From IMG/VR virus record IMGVR_UViG_3300045988_171858: 64,000 nucleotides of DNA; one strand, written 5' to 3'. The notes below the pieces were generated by a model. That model was given only the letters and a program-made list of their open reading frames with translations, had not been told where the DNA came from and did no database searches. Made by a program: the position numbers and the translations under genes. Below, in pieces: positions 5,471 to 14,482 of the stretch; the stretch's first letter is position 1, and each line of letters begins with the position of its first letter. Origin of the DNA: a virus.

Positions 5471-5505
5471 AGCTCCAGGGTGTTTGCCCCGGAGCTTTTC
5501 TTTTT
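5471..5505. terminator. bidirectional intrinsic terminator between convergent genes
   Basis: AGCTCC(A)GGG (5471-5480) pairs with CCCCGGAGCT (5487-5496), followed by TTTCTTTTT on + and by TATTTTATT on the minus strand. Confidence 0.7.
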
Positions 5506-6370
5506 AGCTGATTGGATTAGAACGGAAGGAAGTTGAGAATGAGTACATCACCTCTCTGTAAACCAGAGGTAGATTTTTAACCATTCTTGCGTCGGTTGAA
5601 TCATCTACTTCTTTGATTCTCAGATTTGAGACGGAGAATTTATTTTCTAAGTCTCGGATAGAATCCTCGCCGTATTCCAATGCAAGGAAATCCATCAGTC
5701 CTGTTACTGTTTTGAATGGATTGTCTTCGCCGTCTTTTAGGCCGTCTTCAATTTCGGCGATTAGCGATTTTGGCATACAGAGATTGATTTTCATCTCTTT
5801 GTGTGGAACCCATTTCATCGCTCTATTGTAGTTGATTGCTGTATTGACCAGCATTGCAACCAATTCTTTCGGAGGAACCACATAGCCATCTAGGCTTTGT
5901 TCTACTACTGCTGTGTAGTTGGTTCTATATTCGCCTACTGCCAGTTTACGAAGCTCTGGGATCGGTTTATCTTTTAGAACTTCGTATGGCTGCTTGTATG
6001 TGTAACGGTAAACTGGATATTCAATAATTGCGGCGCTCAAGAAGTATTTATTTTTCAGCTCTTCAATTCCGCGCATTGAAGTTCGTTCTTCTCGGTTTAC
6101 CATATAGATCAATGGGTAAATATTAACTTCATCGCAGGCAAACAGAGGGTTGCGCATTTTTCTTTCGTAGAAGATTTTTCCGACCTCATTGTTTACAGTT
6201 TCATTTGAAGCCCATACATCACGAACACCAGTATTGTCATTATAAGCCACACGAGGAGTGAGACACATGGCACAGGTAGAGCCAAGGTTATAATAAGTAA
6301 TACGTTCTGGTTGTGATTGGAAAAATTGATCTTGCAGAAATTCGCTTTTGCTCATTTTGTATTCTTTCAT
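5504..6370 (-). CDS. hypothetical protein (lone reverse-oriented gene)
   Basis: The ORF track gives 5504..6415 from a GTG start. I prefer the in-frame ATG at 6370 (MKEYKMSKSEF...), and the ATG at 6355 is also possible. I recognised no motifs. Confidence 0.7.
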   Translation of the reverse strand: MKEYKMSKSEFLQDQFFQSQPERITYYNLGSTCAMCLTPRVAYNDNTGVRDVWASNETVNNEVGKIFYERKMRNPLFACDEVNIYPLIYMVNREERTSMRGIEELKNKYFLSAAIIEYPVYRYTYKQPYEVLKDKPIPELRKLAVGEYRTNYTAVVEQSLDGYVVPPKELVAMLVNTAINYNRAMKWVPHKEMKINLCMPKSLIAEIEDGLKDGEDNPFKTVTGLMDFLALEYGEDSIRDLENKFSVSNLRIKEVDDSTDARMVKNLPLVYREVMYSFSTSFRSNPIS

Positions 6371-6516
6371 TGTTGTTATTATTCTTGTTATAAGGTTGCT
6401 TCCGACATCCCTCACTACAGATATGTATTATACGGAAAATGAACATAAAAGTCAAGTTTTTTATGATTTTTCTTCTCTTTAAAATCAATGGCTTATAAAA
6501 TAGTCTAAAAATCTTC

Positions 6517-6546
6517 TTGACTTCAACCATATTTTTAGTGTACAAT
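6517..6546 (+). promoter_or_regulatory. sigma70-like promoter candidate (upstream of the consensus promoter)
   Basis: TTGACT (6517-6522), an 18-nt spacer, then TACAAT (6541-6546). Confidence 0.4.
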
Positions 6547-6589
6547 TGATCATTTTGTTGATAAGAAATGTAAAGATTACAAATAGTGC

Positions 6590-6618
6590 TTGACAAGCGG
6601 GTTAAAAATCCGTATAAT
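6590..6618 (+). promoter_or_regulatory. perfect-consensus sigma70 promoter
   Basis: TTGACA (6590-6595), exactly 17 nt of spacer, then TATAAT (6613-6618). No ORF follows with a plausible RBS. Confidence 0.75.
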
Positions 6619-6826
6619 AGCACCTATGATGTTGATGACGGAAGAACACCGTGTCGGGATAATCTACGGCGTCCGGTCTTCAAGAGACATCATCTTACTG
6701 TGAATTAGTCCTAGAGAAATCTAAATAACCTCGAGAGGCGAGGTCGGATGAGACAGTAATGAAACTCCTAGACGTGGGCGAGCCTAACCAAAGGAGTCAG
6801 TCGAAAACTCGTTGTTGAAGTAGCGT

Positions 6827-6880
6827 AAACTCCCTGATACAAACTCCCTGATTCAAAGTAATGTATCAAAGTAATACGAG
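6827..6880 (+). repeat. four consecutive 13-14 nt tandem units
   Basis: The units are AAACTCCCTGATAC (6827-6840), AAACTCCCTGATTC (6841-6854), AAAGTAATGTATC (6855-6867) and AAAGTAATACGAG (6868-6880). Confidence 0.8.
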
Positions 6881-7253
6881 AGGTGGCGAGTATAAATAAA
6901 TTTCCTGTTATGCAGTGGATTGTAACCGAAAATGATACAAGTAGGCCACATGGGAAGATGAAACATCTCTGGTCTTGTAGAGATAGCATATTGAGCTACA
7001 AGATGATACCGAAAGGTATGACTATAAATGGAAGTATAAACGGTCCATGGATTGAGTTCCTTGGAGGGTCAAGATGGGTGAAGAAAAAGCCTAGGGCATA
7101 GTTCTCTTACAATTAGGATTATGTCAGTAAGACATCTACGTTGTACAACAAGGTTAGACTGGGTTTAGTTAGATTAGATTCTAACTAGAAGACTGTATCA
7201 ATTTTTGTCTTCTAACCGTGCTTGGTTAGGCCTAACTGTATCTACAGAAAACG

Positions 7254-7622
7254 TAAACTTCCATAAGAAACGTATAATAGAGGCAAGTTTACTAAGATAA
7301 CTTCCGATTATAATAATAGATCGGCCGCGCAGGAGCGGCCCGGATAAAAGAAAAGAAACTTCCCAAAGCAAAAAGAAACTTACTGCAGATAGATAATATA
7401 ATCTATCGATACAAAGAATACTTATTACCCTATTGATGTAGATAATACATAGGCTGCTACCGCAGCCCTAAGTTACCAATAGGAAAATAAACATAGGCTT
7501 AGGATACTTACTTAAGCTTGTTGTAGTCTACAATTATATTTGATAATATTTGGAGGTAGCTTGATGCTACCTCCTATTTTATTTTGCAAGAGAAACTTAC
7601 TTAAGCAAATAATACTTACTGC
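7254..7622 (+). repeat. dispersed array of (A/T)ACTT(A/C)C motifs
   Basis: Copies on + are AAACTTCC at 7255, TAACTTCC at 7298, AAAAGAAACTTCCC at 7351, AAAAGAAACTTACT at 7371, ATACTTAT at 7418, GGATACTTACTTAAGC at 7502, AGAAACTTACTTAAGC at 7591 and AATACTTACTGC at 7611. One inverted copy (AAGTTTAC, 7285) forms an 8-bp inverted repeat with 7254-7261 around CGTATAATAG. Confidence 0.75.
7552..7585 (+). terminator. rho-independent terminator
   Basis: A 9-bp stem, GGAGGTAGC (7552-7560) with GCTACCTCC (7566-7574), has loop TTGAT and is followed by TATTTTATTTT. Confidence 0.8.
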
Positions 7623-7656
7623 TTCCTGTATTGGATGTATCCTATGGAAGCTTTTT
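7621..7656 (+). terminator. second rho-independent terminator candidate
   Basis: GCTTCC (7621-7626) pairs with GGAAGC (7646-7651), with an inner GGAT/ATCC pairing, followed by TTTTT (7652-7656). Confidence 0.55.
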
Positions 7657-7894
7657 AGAGATGTTCTGCTAAATCGTGGTTACACTGTCAGATTTAGTTC
7701 CTAGGTCATATATCCGGTTATTGCCTATGACCATGATTTAGCCTATACTAAATTATTCGATAGTAAAATAAGAATTCAGATTCTATTGCAAATTATACGG
7801 ATCTACTGTCTGCATCTATTTCCGTTTCCCTTGTTTTTAGTATTATGATGTAGTAAGAATAAGAATAATAATTTAACTCAGGATAATTAGTTCA

Positions 7895-9220
7895 ATGGCT
7901 ATTCCAAATAAAGAAATCCAAGAAATGTTCGACTTATCTGCAGGTATTATCTCTGCTCATGAAATGAGGGAAAAAGAGAAAACTAAGACCAAAACAGAAG
8001 TTGAAAAAACAGTATCTATGATACAAGAAAAAGAATCCAAATCTATTCCGATTCTATTTTCAGCTAGAGGCATCAAAGTTGCTGACAATAAGATTACAAG
8101 AGCTAGATACCTAGATGCTCTATCTCTAGATAACAAATTATACGAAAGTATTGTTCTTACTGAATCTGAAGCATTGGCATTCAGTACAAGTCTACGCCGT
8201 TCTACAGATGGTGGTATTTCCACTTACTCACCTATGATTTGCAGAGGTTCAAACTGCAAAGTAAAAGAGACATGCTTAACTGGTGATGCAATGGTCTCTA
8301 TGCACGACGGTAAACAAGTAAGAATCGACCGTATTAAAAGCGGCGATAAAATCATTTCATTCAATACGAGAACAAAACGTATTGAGCAAGACACTGTATA
8401 TGCAACGGCATATGTTGGCGAAGAGTTGGTGTATGAAATTACCACTACCGCCGGCCATTGCATTAAGGCAACATCAAACCATCCGTTCTTTGCAATAAAA
8501 GGACGAGGTTCAAAATTCAAGTTCTTATCAATCGATGATGGACTTACAGTAGGCAGCAAGCTAGTGTATGAAGACCTATTCAGCGAAGAAGAGAATTCAT
8601 ATGGAGACTGCCTAATTACCAAGATCGAATCCATAGAGACTGTTGGTGTTCTTCCAGTCTATGATATTCAGGTCTTTAAAAACTCTAATTTCTTTGCAGA
8701 AGGGCTACTTGTCCATAACTGCCAGTTGCATAAGATGAACAAGGCCCCGGTGGGAGCTCCGTGTATTTATGAACAGGATTACTTGCGCAGCCAGACGGAA
8801 AGGTACTTCGAAGAGTTTAATGTTCAACCAGACAGCCCGACGGAAATGCAGATGGTTGCAGAACTCGCAGAAATCGACCTCTATGAAAGGAGAGTTACCC
8901 AAATCCTCTCATTGACCCACCAAGACTTTAGCCAAGAAGACCTGATGGGTTTTGATGCCGGCGGTAATATGATTGCCCGTGATGATATTTCAAGGTATCT
9001 AAACATCAAAGAGAAACTGAAGAACAGAAGAAGCAAACTTCTAGAATCACTAATGGCGACGAGGAAAGAACGTGCTAAGATTGCTGTTCAGGCATCTGGC
9101 GCAGGTGTCGGAAACGGAAGTCAGTCACTCAAAGATAAACTTGATATGCTTACTGCTGCAACACGAGGACAGTATAGAGACCCATCAGTGATAAATGGTT
9201 CGAAAAATGACACAAACTAA
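7895..9220 (+). CDS. Cys-rich hypothetical protein interrupted by a mini-intein (small-terminase or DNA-binding role is only a positional guess)
   Basis: 441-aa ORF. The exteins (126 + 166 aa) join as ...ICRGSNCKVKET|CQLHKMNKAPVGAPCIYE..., a 4-Cys cluster. The C-terminal part is charged and helical. It is the first gene of the block that leads to terL. Confidence 0.85.
   Translation: MAIPNKEIQEMFDLSAGIISAHEMREKEKTKTKTEVEKTVSMIQEKESKSIPILFSARGIKVADNKITRARYLDALSLDNKLYESIVLTESEALAFSTSLRRSTDGGISTYSPMICRGSNCKVKETCLTGDAMVSMHDGKQVRIDRIKSGDKIISFNTRTKRIEQDTVYATAYVGEELVYEITTTAGHCIKATSNHPFFAIKGRGSKFKFLSIDDGLTVGSKLVYEDLFSEEENSYGDCLITKIESIETVGVLPVYDIQVFKNSNFFAEGLLVHNCQLHKMNKAPVGAPCIYEQDYLRSQTERYFEEFNVQPDSPTEMQMVAELAEIDLYERRVTQILSLTHQDFSQEDLMGFDAGGNMIARDDISRYLNIKEKLKNRRSKLLESLMATRKERAKIAVQASGAGVGNGSQSLKDKLDMLTAATRGQYRDPSVINGSKNDTN
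8273..8719 (+). mobile_element. class-1 mini-intein (149 aa, no homing-endonuclease domain)
   Basis: Block A is CLTGDAMV with Cys1 at 8273-8275. Block B is ATSNHPFF (TxxH). Block F is VYDIQVFKNSNFFAEG. Block G is LLVHN followed by the +1 Cys (8720-8722). The element is in frame with the host ORF. Confidence 0.9.
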
Positions 9221-9722
9221 AAAGGTCACCAATAAGGTCAAGCGTAGTAAAAAGAGAAGCTTGCCAAAGCCTAAGAATACAAAAGAAGAGCATATTAAAA
9301 AGAACGGCGCCTATTTTAATAAGGGCAAGAAGTACCGCTCTGGGAAATACTTCTCCATAAAGGCCGGTAGAGAGATTGAGTACCGCAGCCTATACGAATA
9401 CGCGTTCTATAAAGGCATGGATTCTGACAATAGTGTTATCAAATATATTGTAGAGCCAATGAAGATTCCATATACAGACAGCTCTGGACTAAGAAGAAAC
9501 TACATCCCCGACGTATTGGTCCTATATACAACAGGCGAAGTAGAGCTGTGTGAAATCAAACCATCATCGGCAAAGAAAGCAATAAACGTACAGCTAAAAG
9601 CAAGGGCGGCAGTTGCATTCTTGAAAGACAACAGAATCAATGCCAAATATAGATTCATTACAGAAAAAGAAATCTTCGAGAAAGATGGCGACTACCGTAA
9701 ACTGCTCAAGGAAGTAAAATGA
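9195..9722 (+). CDS. TnsA-N-like PD-(D/E)XK nuclease
   Basis: 175 aa with a basic N-terminus. The motifs SLYEYAF ... YIPDVLVLYTTGEVELCEIKP fit the E...PD...(E/Q)xK pattern of TnsA/restriction-fold nucleases. It overlaps the end of the intein host gene by 26 nt. Confidence 0.6.
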   Translation: MVRKMTQTKKVTNKVKRSKKRSLPKPKNTKEEHIKKNGAYFNKGKKYRSGKYFSIKAGREIEYRSLYEYAFYKGMDSDNSVIKYIVEPMKIPYTDSSGLRRNYIPDVLVLYTTGEVELCEIKPSSAKKAINVQLKARAAVAFLKDNRINAKYRFITEKEIFEKDGDYRKLLKEVK

Positions 9723-11407: not shown

Positions 11408-12521
11408 TAGAAGTCAACTTTGGGGTCAGGTAGCCCTAGAGTCAAAAGACGGCTTGCTGACAGGTGATAAGTCAAGATCAAAGCACGCCTCAAGGACGTC
11501 TAAACGCCTATTCGAAAACGGCCTGGGTAACGAGGACCATCCAGTAAAATGGGCATCAACCCTTTACGCTAAGAATGCAATCGAAGACTATACAGACGTT
11601 AGAAAGATGCTGGATAGTACAGATCCATTCTCAAAAGGCTCAATTGGTACAGCATTAAAAGCAGAGGCCATTACAAACTCTAGAAATAGGACGGCCGCAG
11701 AGCGAATATTTGGTGCGGCTCCAGGTTCAAGCAAATACAATTCGACACAGCCAATCAGGGGCGGCGGCATAAATAATATGTATGCCTTCAATAGCTACGA
11801 GTCATTTGTAACAGCAGGCGCAATGGACCATCTTGGTAGAGCCAGTAAATTCTTTAGAGGCTATGGCCTTCGAGATGACCTTATGAACTCTGTCGGGTTA
11901 ATGACTAAACACCAAAAGGCAATTATTTCCTCGTCTGCAACAAAAGCGACAGACAAACTGTTTACGGGTATGGCCCCAATACTTGGCGGTGTATTTGCAT
12001 TAACAGAGTCCGCAGATTATATTCTAGGGAATAAGGAATCGACGATTACAGACAACGCCGCAACTTCAGTGGCAGGCATGGCAATATCAGCTGCGGCCGG
12101 CACATACGGTTTTCGCGTTGGCAAAGAACTGACTCATGCCGGAACATCATTACTTAAGGGTGCACCGATAGTTGGTAAAATTGGCCGCGGAACAGCAGGA
12201 GAGGCCCTCGGTATGGCAGGAAGGGTTAGGGGTGCAGCCAAGCTTGCAACAGGTGCCGTAGGTGGTCTTGTGGTCGGCGGAGGGCTAATGATGGCTGCAG
12301 ACGCAGCAATAGGCCTGGCCAAAAGCATGGCAGATAGAGACAACAGGATTCTGCAACTGAGAAACTCACTATTCTCATCTACATCCGGTAATACCTCAGT
12401 TAATACATCCCAACTTGCCACAAGTAGACAAAGAGCATTCTCAAAATTGTCCAAATCCTCACTGAATGATAAGGGTTACATTCTTGGTAATGAGGCAGCT
12501 ATACTGAAAGGTATATACTAA
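11397..12521 (+). CDS. hypothetical protein with Gly/Ala-rich hydrophobic C-terminal half
   Basis: 374-aa ORF containing GAVGGLVVGGGLMMAADAAIGLA and SVAGMAISAAAGTYG. Its stop overlaps the terL start (TAATG). Confidence 0.75.
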   Translation: MSIDRSQLWGQVALESKDGLLTGDKSRSKHASRTSKRLFENGLGNEDHPVKWASTLYAKNAIEDYTDVRKMLDSTDPFSKGSIGTALKAEAITNSRNRTAAERIFGAAPGSSKYNSTQPIRGGGINNMYAFNSYESFVTAGAMDHLGRASKFFRGYGLRDDLMNSVGLMTKHQKAIISSSATKATDKLFTGMAPILGGVFALTESADYILGNKESTITDNAATSVAGMAISAAAGTYGFRVGKELTHAGTSLLKGAPIVGKIGRGTAGEALGMAGRVRGAAKLATGAVGGLVVGGGLMMAADAAIGLAKSMADRDNRILQLRNSLFSSTSGNTSVNTSQLATSRQRAFSKLSKSSLNDKGYILGNEAAILKGIY

Positions 12522-14482
12522 TGTCAGAAGAATTAGAACAAAACACTGACCATATCCGTAAGGATATAGAAGAGGACGACGATAGGAAGCCGACGTCGTC
12601 CCTTATTCAACTTTATGAAATGCCCTGGCGGGACTATCTAAAGCACAAAAATTATGATACAGATATCAATAATATGTGCAGGAACTGCCAAAGGGAACAA
12701 ATCAGAAAGTACGGAGAAATTACAATTAAATGCTCTGGGCCTAAAGATATCAGTGTCCTGGATCAAAATATTGTAGCCGATTTAAACAAAGAAGAGCTTG
12801 ACGAAATTAAGCAAGCGATGGATCCCGTATACTGGGCAGAGAAGAACATCGATGTAAACCAGCCGGACCCGACGAAACGTTTATATGTTAATAGATGGTA
12901 CCAATCTATGCAAATTAAATGTTCTGCGTCTAAAAAAGCTATCCGGTGCGGGCGGCGTTCAGGTAAATCTTACGGCCTTGGTATTGATATTTCCAACAGA
13001 CTTGTTCAAAACAGTAACTATCAGATCCTTGTAGTAACACCGTTCCTATCTCAAGCAAAAGAGCTTACAAACGTAGTCAAAAAGATTCTCCGCTCTCTTG
13101 GCGATACAATAGGTACATGGGATGACCTTGTTGAACGCTCAGTTACATCTCCGTACCAAGAGATCCAGATGAAGAATGGCTCAACATTCAAAGCGTTTAC
13201 AGCCGGTAATGACAATGCAAACGCCGTCCGCGGTCAAGGTGCACACCTTATCATCATCGACGAGGCGGACTTCCTAACCCAAGAGGCATTTGACTCCATT
13301 ACTGCCATCTTGATGGATAAACCAAATACCGAAATTATTTGTACATCCACACCGATGGGCGAGGGCCTATTGTACAAGTTCGCAAACTCAAAAGACTACA
13401 AAGAGTTCCACTTCCCATCCTTCTGTATCCCCCACTACAATGATGACATGGACAGAGAGTTCCGCAACTCATTGTCCATGATGGCATACATCCAAGAGAT
13501 CATGGCAGAATTCGGCCTTTCAGATAACTCCGTATTTGATACAGACCTCGTGAATAGAAGTACGACAATTGGAACCTCAGAATCTCTACATGATGTAATC
13601 GTCAATAGAGATAGGTATATAGTGTCTCTTGGTTGTGACTGGAACGCCGATAAGGTTGGTACACGTATTTGTGTTATTGCATACGACAAAATTGAGCGCA
13701 AGGTTATCATTGCAAATCTTTCAAATGTAAGACGAGAAGGATGGACACAGGTTGCAGCAGTAGATAAGATTGTCGAACTTAATAGACTCTATGTCCCCGA
13801 TTATATTTATGTCGACGAAGGGTTTGGTGAGGCAAACGTTCAGCAATTAAAACTTATTGCCGTAAATCTATTTGGTAAAGTACCGACGAATCATCCGGAT
13901 TTGAGATTGCGCAATGTAACGCCGGTTAACTTCTCATCGACACTTGAGCTTCGAGATGTAATGACCGGAGAAATCCGTAAAAAATACTTCAAAAACTTCA
14001 TCGTAGAAACCACCAAGCGTGCATTGGAAACTGATTTACTGGCCTTCAAGGATCCAATCTCAGCACCAATTGTAGAGCAGATGAAAAACTATATTGTTAA
14101 ATCTCGCGCTGCAAACGGAAGAGAAGTATACGAAGCTAAGAACCACGAGATTGGCGACCATGATTTAGATGCATTTATGATTGCATTGGCTGGATTGCAA
14201 TTAAATGAGGATTCAATCCTAGACACACGGCGCTATTCTAATGTTACAATATTGCCACTTGAAAAACGCGGCTCTGAAGCGTATAATAACTCGAATAAAA
14301 TAGAAAAACGCTCGTATGCAAACGAGGAAAAGTACCATCGAACAGTTCGTGTTGCCCCTGGCATTAGTCGACGTTCGTCCATAACAGGTGGACCGATGGG
14401 TGGCAGAGGTTCTTTGTCTAGAGAGACAGCCTCTACGTTTATGAATAGGTACAGAGCTACAATGAGGTCAAAACCTAGATAA
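12521..14482 (+). CDS. terL: terminase large subunit
   Basis: Walker A-like CGRRSGKSYG and Walker B-like HLIIIDEADF are present. The nuclease-domain acidic motifs are LGCDWNAD, IYVDEGFGE and HDLDAFMIAL. Length is 653 aa. Confidence 0.9.
   Translation: MSEELEQNTDHIRKDIEEDDDRKPTSSLIQLYEMPWRDYLKHKNYDTDINNMCRNCQREQIRKYGEITIKCSGPKDISVLDQNIVADLNKEELDEIKQAMDPVYWAEKNIDVNQPDPTKRLYVNRWYQSMQIKCSASKKAIRCGRRSGKSYGLGIDISNRLVQNSNYQILVVTPFLSQAKELTNVVKKILRSLGDTIGTWDDLVERSVTSPYQEIQMKNGSTFKAFTAGNDNANAVRGQGAHLIIIDEADFLTQEAFDSITAILMDKPNTEIICTSTPMGEGLLYKFANSKDYKEFHFPSFCIPHYNDDMDREFRNSLSMMAYIQEIMAEFGLSDNSVFDTDLVNRSTTIGTSESLHDVIVNRDRYIVSLGCDWNADKVGTRICVIAYDKIERKVIIANLSNVRREGWTQVAAVDKIVELNRLYVPDYIYVDEGFGEANVQQLKLIAVNLFGKVPTNHPDLRLRNVTPVNFSSTLELRDVMTGEIRKKYFKNFIVETTKRALETDLLAFKDPISAPIVEQMKNYIVKSRAANGREVYEAKNHEIGDHDLDAFMIALAGLQLNEDSILDTRRYSNVTILPLEKRGSEAYNNSNKIEKRSYANEEKYHRTVRVAPGISRRSSITGGPMGGRGSLSRETASTFMNRYRATMRSKPR

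Follow-up and report, generated by a model that had tools for sequence, protein, structure and literature searches.

A HOLDH RNA gene of uncultured phages appears to continue past its Rfam model into a conserved, back-folding 3′ domain

The HOLDH gene, its promoter and its relatives

We analysed a 64-kb stretch of viral DNA (IMG/VR record IMGVR_UViG_3300045988_171858; the whole stretch is called the window below), in which a consensus promoter on the + strand is followed by about 1.2 kb without a credible open reading frame (ORF). The RNA discussed here is encoded on the + strand of this interval, and the locus is the gene for HOLDH RNA, an already catalogued family. An earlier note on this DNA, made from the letters alone, had found no annotated feature that would explain the interval and no known RNA class to which it could be assigned by eye. 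This was not borne out by a covariance-model scan of the whole window with Rfam 15, which gave a single match above the gathering threshold, HOLDH RNA (RF02997), at 6626-7019 (+), with a score of 397 bits against a gathering score of 319.4 and E = 1.6e-107. The match is untruncated, covering model positions 1-391 of 391 in 394 nt of the window, and no further credible Rfam family was found in 6400-7950, even at E up to 5. Rfam places HOLDH among small RNA (sRNA) genes. It was described in 2017 by Weinberg et al., in a survey of 224 candidate structured RNAs (PMC5737381). Beyond that paper, the searchable literature has HOLDH only as a table entry in PMC12510878 (10 sequences, ~401 nt, 6/95 pairs covarying), with no function given; CaCoFold-R3D predicts that it contains a K-turn (PMC12510878).

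Relatives were gathered with two conserved HOLDH motifs as exact patterns, which matched 34 and 26 loci in IMG/VR and 22 loci in metagenomes. The presence of HOLDH was confirmed, by Rfam or by an nhmmer profile, in 50 loci, 43 of which extend to the end of the conserved core described below. They provide 31 distinct core sequences, falling into five clades, A-E, with the window in clade A. Many of the loci lie on uncultured phage contigs of ~170-187 kb, and all HOLDH copies occupy one fixed place, in the same orientation, upstream of an orthologue of the intein-bearing gene at 7895-9220. From the HOLDH start to the downstream ATG, clade D has ~930 nt and clade E ~1,830 nt, and the spacer between the RNA and the gene is ORF-free.

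Outside this group the searches were negative. Neither blastn of 6400-7900, in its near and distant forms, nor tblastn of the 562-aa neighbouring protein gave a match in 50,697 GenBank phage records, which thus hold no cultured relative. The loose motif CGGGATAANCTACGNCNTC matched at least 120 loci in genome contigs, but it was rejected, as nhmmer found none of them credible (one weak partial match, E = 4e-4). Two stricter motif patterns gave 0 and 5 matches in 185,579 species-representative genomes, and these five equal the number estimated for chance, with no RNA family at the site. The search via the neighbouring protein added no HOLDH diversity either, leaving five clades in the data searched. 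In two loci with more distant orthologues of the gene 7895-9220 (L200 and L216, 49% and 34% identity), HOLDH and a large upstream gap are both absent, and the orthologue of the intein-bearing gene has other genes at a short distance on its upstream side. Because these loci lack it, HOLDH looks like a later acquisition of one phage lineage.

The Rfam-defined part, the region that follows it and the promoter signals in front of it are as follows.

6517-6546 (+): weak promoter-like site, TTGACT-18-TACAAT (10/12 consensus matches)
6590-6618 (+): sigma-70-type promoter of the RNA, TTGACA-17-TATAAT (promoter scan and conserved -10 box)
6626-7019 (+): HOLDH RNA, Rfam-defined part, the 5′ two-thirds of the conserved core
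7020-7250 (+): conserved 3′ domain outside the Rfam model, ending in the block AGGCCUAACUGUAUCUA (conservation in clades A, B and C)

The perfect promoter at 6590-6618, claimed in the earlier note, was confirmed by a promoter scan. It is the sole perfect match to TTGACA-17-TATAAT on both strands of the window, where 0.07 such matches are expected from shuffles. The HOLDH match begins 8 nt past its -10 hexamer, and each of the five clades has a TATAAT -10 box at 7-8 nt from the first HOLDH nucleotide, on its upstream side. At the -35 position, clades A and B have TTGACA and clade C has TTGCAT, and the -35 box of clade D is poor; in clade E, an extended -10 element, TGATATAAT, stands in place of the -35 box. 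The second promoter proposed upstream does exist as a sequence, but it is lost in clade-A relatives such as L003 and is probably not functional. Two internal promoter candidates were dropped: TATAAT at 7273-7278, which is absent from clade-A relatives, and TTTACT-15-TATAAT at 7288-7314, the spacing of which is poor.

The helices of the Rfam model are supported by compensatory changes. RNAalifold on 17 sequences found 20 pairs changed on both sides, including pairs of P1 and of the terminal GAAA hairpin. Three pairs of P1 (alignment columns 1-8 with 63-70) are altered on both sides, and the five-clade alignment contains the same compensatory changes in the helices of the model. The comparison of homologous loci revealed both conservation and covariation in the RNA, and these data speak for selection on its hairpins rather than chance. 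The GAAA-tetraloop hairpin that had been pointed out at 7006-7019 is present and is the final helix of the HOLDH model. As for the tandem units that had been read at 6827-6880, a 14-nt repeat is indeed present at 6827-6857 (2.2 copies), but the stretch as a whole is an ordinary HOLDH helix, comprising both strands of one hairpin.

The 3′ domain and its long-range pairings

Conservation in the 31 distinct homologues from five clades does not end with the Rfam match at 7019, but runs on to ~7250. In 7020-7165, clade A is 88% identical to clade B and 64% identical to clade C; in the Rfam part identity is 84-86%. The block AGGCC(U/C)AA(C/U)UGUAUCU, at 7227-7244 of the window (AGGCCCUUAGUGUAGCU in clade E), forms the end of the conserved region and is located 533-681 nt from the RNA start in every long-enough locus of all five clades. 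The conserved RNA is therefore ~625 nt long in the window and 561-710 nt long across the clades, as compared with ~400 nt for HOLDH in the catalogue. This mismatch in size puts the boundary of the family in question, not the membership of the RNA in it. The core, 6626-7255, folds modestly better than shuffles (z = -2.4). On comparative grounds we conclude that 6626 to ~7250 probably constitutes one co-evolving RNA unit of ~625 nt.

Three long-range pairings, PK-1 to PK-3, are proposed between the 3′ domain and the Rfam-defined part. Their arms, and the hairpins that carry them, are listed below.

6782-6788 (+): PK-1 5′ arm GCCUAAC, inside the Rfam hairpin UGGG-CGAG-CCUA, pairing with 7225-7231
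7225-7231 (+): PK-1 3′ arm GUUAGGC, pairing with 6782-6788
6919-6925 (+): PK-2 5′ arm AUUGUAA, internal loop in the Rfam structure, pairing with 7107-7113
7095-7125 (+): covarying hairpin with an 11-bp stem and the 9-nt loop CUUACAAUU, the loop containing the PK-2 3′ arm (7107-7113)
6933-6939 (+): 5′ arm UGAUACA of PK-3, a candidate kissing interaction, in the loop of a variable HOLDH hairpin (RNA positions 308-314)
7194-7200 (+): PK-3 3′ arm UGUAUCA, in the loop of hairpin 7186-7214 (RNA positions 569-575)
7166-7214 (+): two adjacent hairpins, 7166-7187 and 7186-7214 (predicted fold)

PK-1 has seven of seven Watson-Crick pairs in each of the 31 distinct sequences. It occurs in three types, GCCUAAC:GUUAGGC (clades A, B and C), GCCUAGC:GCUAGGC (clade D) and GCCUGGC:GCCAGGC (clade E), and its variants AAC:GUU, AGC:GCU and GGC:GCC lose strict pairs in non-cognate combinations. 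In an anchor-defined mini-alignment, 100% of the PK-1 cells are paired and two pairs are altered on both sides. The covariation score was attained by only 1 of 500 shuffles, and slid registers pair 0-57% of cells. In addition, RNAalifold drew PK-1 unprompted, both with clades A, B and C together and with clade E alone. The Rfam hairpin UGGG/CCUA, with which the 5′ arm overlaps, has one-sided change only, and PK-1 appears from the alignments to be the better-supported of the two. We also considered whether the palindrome GUUAGGCCUAAC (7225-7236) could be the cause of the conservation; it was rejected, as it is lost in clades D and E while the pairing to HOLDH stays.

The support for PK-2 and PK-3 is weaker than that for PK-1. 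PK-2, AUUGUAA:UUACAAU, has seven of seven pairs in clades A and B, and in clade C it is AUUGCAA:UUGCAAU, with both sides altered. In the hairpin 7095-7125, whose loop provides its 3′ arm, pairing is kept in 98.7% of the stem cells, and 3 of the 11 pairs are altered on both sides. The mismatches in this stem are G.U in the + sense only, with no A.C, and therefore fit a + strand RNA. PK-3 has the form ACGAUAUU:GAUAUCGU in clade C, and non-cognate combinations drop 2-3 pairs. Both hairpins that had been noticed earlier at 7166-7187 and 7186-7214 were recovered in the predicted fold. The second has the stem AGAAGAC/GUCUUCU in clade A and GAGAC/GUCUC or GGAAC/GUUCC within clade C, the changes being compensatory; in clade B the hairpins 7166-7214 are absent and the HOLDH loop of PK-3 is also shortened. 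Other candidate pairings were dropped: 7144-7156 with 7513-7525, which is not kept in clade-A relatives; 7028-7038 with 7254-7264, which is missing from clade C; and GUGGAU:AUCUAC and GUAGCGUA:UACGUUGU, which are in other registers or missing in other clades.

We infer that PK-1 to PK-3 are intramolecular. Because the 3′ domain would then pair back to three elements of the 5′ part, the core may be regarded as one compact fold of ~625 nt and not of 391 nt. As compared with the catalogue, the functional unit appears to be ~60% longer than the model and to fold back on it; without the 3′ extension, the locus would be an ordinary instance of a catalogued family.

Several observations weigh against such a unit. 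Clades D and E are poorly aligned in the 3′ domain, and their equivalents of PK-2 have 6 bp (D) and 5 bp (E), in a register picked by eye. With a diversity of only five clades, PK-1 is supported by two independent covariation events, and PK-2 and PK-3 by one to three. The 4-bp Rfam hairpin UGGG/CCUA, a competitor of PK-1, can form in every sequence, and the 3′ domain contains a covarying segment that resembles the 3′ strand of the Rfam helix P2 in all clades. Because of this competitor hairpin and of the P2 mimic, alternative or intermolecular pairings are possible. Clade D also lacks the tail modules described below and has no terminator call on the RNA strand, and therefore the tail and the terminator are not universal.

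Some elements of HOLDH are found again in the 3′ domain, namely CAGUAA at RNA positions 129 and 500, UGGG...GCCUA at RNA positions 151-161 and 450-468, and the GAUAC/GUAUC arm pairs at RNA positions 211/238 and 309/570. Inside the HOLDH part, CUCCCUGAU and AAAGUAAU are each doubled. The recurring elements in 6626-7250 suggest a partial internal duplication or interchangeable pairing partners.

The tail, the terminator and the neighbouring genes

Between the conserved core and the first gene downstream, the following features were found.

7251-7545 (+): variable hairpin-rich tail (fold z-score; poor conservation between clades)
7422-7490 (+): tail module, one copy, composed of CCCUAUUG, the hairpin GGCUGC-UACC-GCAGCC and CAAUAGGAAAA
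7552-7585 (+): intrinsic terminator with a 9-bp stem and a 5-nt loop, then UAUUUUAUUUU (terminator scan)
7621-7656 (+): weak terminator-like hairpin GCUUCC...GGAAGC followed by U5, doubtful
7721-7749 (+): promoter-like site TTGCCT-17-TATACT of the downstream operon (promoter scan, consensus match only)

The tail region 7256-7590 folds far better than shuffles (z = -7.3). The GGCCGC/GCGGCC hairpin at 7323-7340 is present as described before, and between relatives its stem is kept and its loop varies. The hairpin described at 7451-7468 is present too, but on the + strand it has a stem of 6 bp, GGCUGC/GCAGCC, and not of 7 bp. Clades A and B have one copy of the tail module, and clades C and E have four. 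Clade D has none, and its sole CAAUAGGAAAA overlaps the ribosome-binding site of the downstream gene. We considered CAATAGGAAAA as a genome-wide promoter or ribosome-binding-site signal and rejected it, as there is no other exact copy in the window and matches with one mismatch are scattered. The modules, each a GC-rich hairpin with the GGA-containing CAAUAGGAAAA and present in up to four copies (clades C and E), recall the protein-sponge RNAs of the CsrB/RsmZ type. Unlike in these sponges, there is one copy in the window and the motif is located beside the hairpins, not in loops, and we take the likeness as a resemblance only. The tail may act as a stabilising or protein-binding RNA appendage, or partly as DNA sites.

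The intrinsic terminator that had been placed at 7552-7574 was called by the terminator scan. It consists of GGAGGTAGC / GCTACCTCC, then TATTTTATTTT, i.e., a stem of 9 bp, six of them GC, followed by TATTTTATTT. The stem GGAGGUAGC / GCUACCUCC and the U-tract are kept in clades A, B and C, and in clade E, where the terminator is AGGAGUAGC / GCUACUCCU followed by U6, all nine pairs are kept with both strands changed. No other call was made on the + strand of 6626-7552, and therefore the default primary transcript is predicted to be ~955 nt long. The second terminator proposed in the earlier note, at 7621-7656, did not hold: with a 6-bp stem, an 18-nt loop and T5, it was passed over by the scan, and its stem is lost in clade-A relatives.

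The promoter-like block 7721-7749 is conserved in clades A, B and C, and the corresponding site of clade E is TTGCGA-17-TATACT. A 13-nt inverted repeat, GCTAAATCGTGGT / ACCATGATTTAGC, at 7668-7680 and 7730-7742, is conserved in clades A, B and C as well, and its 3′ arm sits in the spacer of TTGCCT-17-TATACT. This repeat could be an operator or a 5′-untranslated-region structure of the structural operon.

The RNA heads the structural and packaging module, with the large terminase gene at 12521-14482, ~5 kb away. The first gene after the RNA, 7895-9220 (+), contains a mini-intein (Pfam Intein_splicing, residues 134-275) without an endonuclease domain. All five clades have the intein at the same site of the orthologue, and it is also spanned by the alignments to orthologues of 34-49% identity. 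It interrupts a Cys-rich motif between CRGSNCKVKET and CQLHK...APC. The spliced 292-aa extein matched no family in PHROGs. The gene is not callable as a small terminase, and the idea of a pac site is not anchored. The end of the intein gene is overlapped by 9195-9722 (+), which encodes a 175-aa protein with a TnsA-like endonuclease N-terminal domain (PF08722); the PHROGs label of its family is 'head closure'. ARAGORN found no tRNA or tmRNA in the 64-kb window.

On the other side of the RNA, a near-consensus promoter, TTGACT-17-TATAAT (11/12), is located at 6427-6455 (-) and faces a 303-aa gene, 5504-6415, with no Pfam or PHROG family match. Together with the promoter at 6590-6618 (+), it gives the intergenic region divergent promoters. 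Further upstream, 2001-2400 has a strong negative GC skew (-0.44), with CTCACACAC-type short repeats at 2315-2354, and lies within a stretch, 1-2690, that has small ORFs only.

Interpretation and relation to other large RNAs

Taken together, these results support the earlier proposal that the + strand carries a gene for a non-coding RNA, driven by a strong promoter of its own and closed by a genuine terminator. We consider it likely that the locus encodes an independently transcribed, structured HOLDH RNA that has a core of ~625 nt and a predicted primary transcript of ~955 nt and acts in trans. Host RNA polymerase would initiate at ~6625-6626 from the consensus sigma-70-type promoter. The first 394 nt of the transcript would adopt the catalogued HOLDH fold, and the following ~230 nt, to ~7250, would form the 3′ domain, pairing to three elements of the 5′ part. 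Transcription most probably runs through the lineage-variable tail to the terminator at 7552-7585, and the ~955-nt transcript would be insulated from the packaging and structural operon, which would have its own promoter. The comparative data support a conserved co-folding core to ~7250 and are compatible with read-through to the terminator. Its action in trans would be that of an abundant RNA with a structural or scaffold-like role, such as has been proposed for ROOL and GOLLD, and not that of a messenger RNA or a riboswitch.

It seems improbable that only the 394-nt HOLDH is the RNA and that what lies downstream is a second small RNA, or DNA sites for packaging initiation or regulator binding. 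The tail does hold ACTTACT four times and CCCTATTG / CAATAGG inverted repeats, a CTATTGG-like motif is also found after the terminator, TATAAT-like boxes lie within the tail at 7273-7278 and 7309-7314, and the region is at the head of a structural and packaging module, all of which would favour this reading. However, PK-1 to PK-3 tie 7095-7231 to HOLDH by strand-specific compensatory changes, and as DNA-binding sites would not yield such changes, a role as DNA sites is disfavoured for 7095-7231. The stem mismatches are G.U in the + sense only. Moreover, no terminator was called between 7019 and 7552, and clade-A relatives do not share the TATAAT box inside the tail at 7273. A reading as packaging or regulatory DNA sites is possible for the tail, 7251-7545, only.

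We also doubt that the RNA acts in cis as the leader of the late structural operon, i.e., as a terminated leader in which the RNA or a bound factor enables processive antitermination. Its position directly upstream of a + strand gene array of >56 kb, running in the same orientation from 7895 to the window end, would suit such a leader, as would the synteny with the first gene, which is fixed in all clades, and the strong terminator that separates the RNA from the operon. Clade D may be added to this, since in the absence of a terminator call on the RNA strand its RNA could be co-transcribed with the gene. However, clades A, B, C and E have a conserved promoter-like site, TTGCCT/TTGCGA-17-TATACT, after the terminator and before the gene, and because of it the operon would need no read-through. 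Known antitermination RNAs are 70-120 nt long, as compared with 625 nt here, and the distant orthologues of the first gene are without such an RNA or a large upstream gap. The arrangement resembles that of the lambda PR'-6S RNA-tR' region and of put and EAR RNAs in having a strong constitutive promoter, a terminated non-coding transcript and a long late operon downstream on the same strand. In contrast to them, the RNA here is 5-10 times as large, its terminator is followed by a separate conserved promoter-like site, and one clade has no terminator call on the RNA strand. That the interval encodes one or more small proteins, with the hairpins being incidental, is scarcely credible: mechanical ORFs of 54-73 aa can be drawn, such as 6883-7101 (+) and 7540-7704 (+), but from 6626 to 7894 none exceeds 73 aa, as the earlier note had judged none to be credible, none is conserved in length or frame across the clades and their homologous loci, the longest fall within HOLDH helices, indels between clades are not multiples of three, substitutions track base-pairing and not codon positions, and the Shine-Dalgarno-like CAAUAGGAAAA motifs of the tail have no start codon after them.

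The structured trans-acting RNA that we favour shares with the HOLDH model a match over its whole length and the character of a large, complex orphan RNA with many invariant nucleotides. It differs from the model in that the conserved, covarying RNA extends ~230 nt past the 3′ end of the model, and in that the UGGG/CCUA hairpin of the model competes here with a long-range helix. The copies found here are, in addition, all in one lineage of ~170-187 kb phage contigs and at one locus.

The large ornate RNAs ROOL and GOLLD, of phages and prophages, assemble into nanocages made of RNA only (PMC12286853). Like them, the RNA described here is phage-encoded, has ~600 nt or more and many helices, and would contain pseudoknot-type long-range pairings. 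It also combines a conserved core with a less conserved region, as GOLLD combines a universally conserved part with a variable part. On the other hand, there is no covariance-model match here to ROOL, GOLLD, OLE or other large Rfam RNAs. ROOL and GOLLD are often found beside tRNA genes, of which there are none in the 64 kb around this RNA, and the distribution found here is narrow; the comparison, on our side, is one of sequence. In the pRNA of phage phi29, loop-loop complementarities covary, as they keep an RNA ring together (PMC12286853, reference 35). Both are phage-encoded structured RNAs, and the RNA here heads a packaging and structural module; unlike it, pRNA has ~174 nt, there is no Rfam match to it here, and the large terminase gene is ~5 kb off. 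The analysis of the locus gave no evident link of this RNA to a portal or terminase.

These likenesses allow a more speculative proposal, to which we give an outside chance. PK-1 to PK-3, the P2 duplicate and the internal repeats would be intermolecular or switchable contacts, through which the ~625-nt core would form a homo-oligomer, either a cage like those of ROOL and GOLLD or a ring like that of pRNA. The tail would form an appendage that is disordered or binds protein, and the oligomer would have its role in virion assembly or host takeover.

Large intricate RNAs of bacteria and phages are rare, and those that have been resolved are ribozymes, ribonucleoprotein scaffolds or RNA-only cages (PMC5737381, PMC12286853). 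In its size class, HOLDH belongs to a small number of RNAs that are still orphans. If the ~625-nt unit is true, work on a 391-nt construct would probably fail or mislead, and the Rfam model and its hairpin at 6775-6785 would need revision. HOLDH would then rank with ROOL and GOLLD in length and complexity, and would be a natural target for cryo-electron microscopy. If the homo-oligomer is true, HOLDH would be a further natural RNA-only quaternary structure, for which the 391-nt model would be too short to show the assembly.

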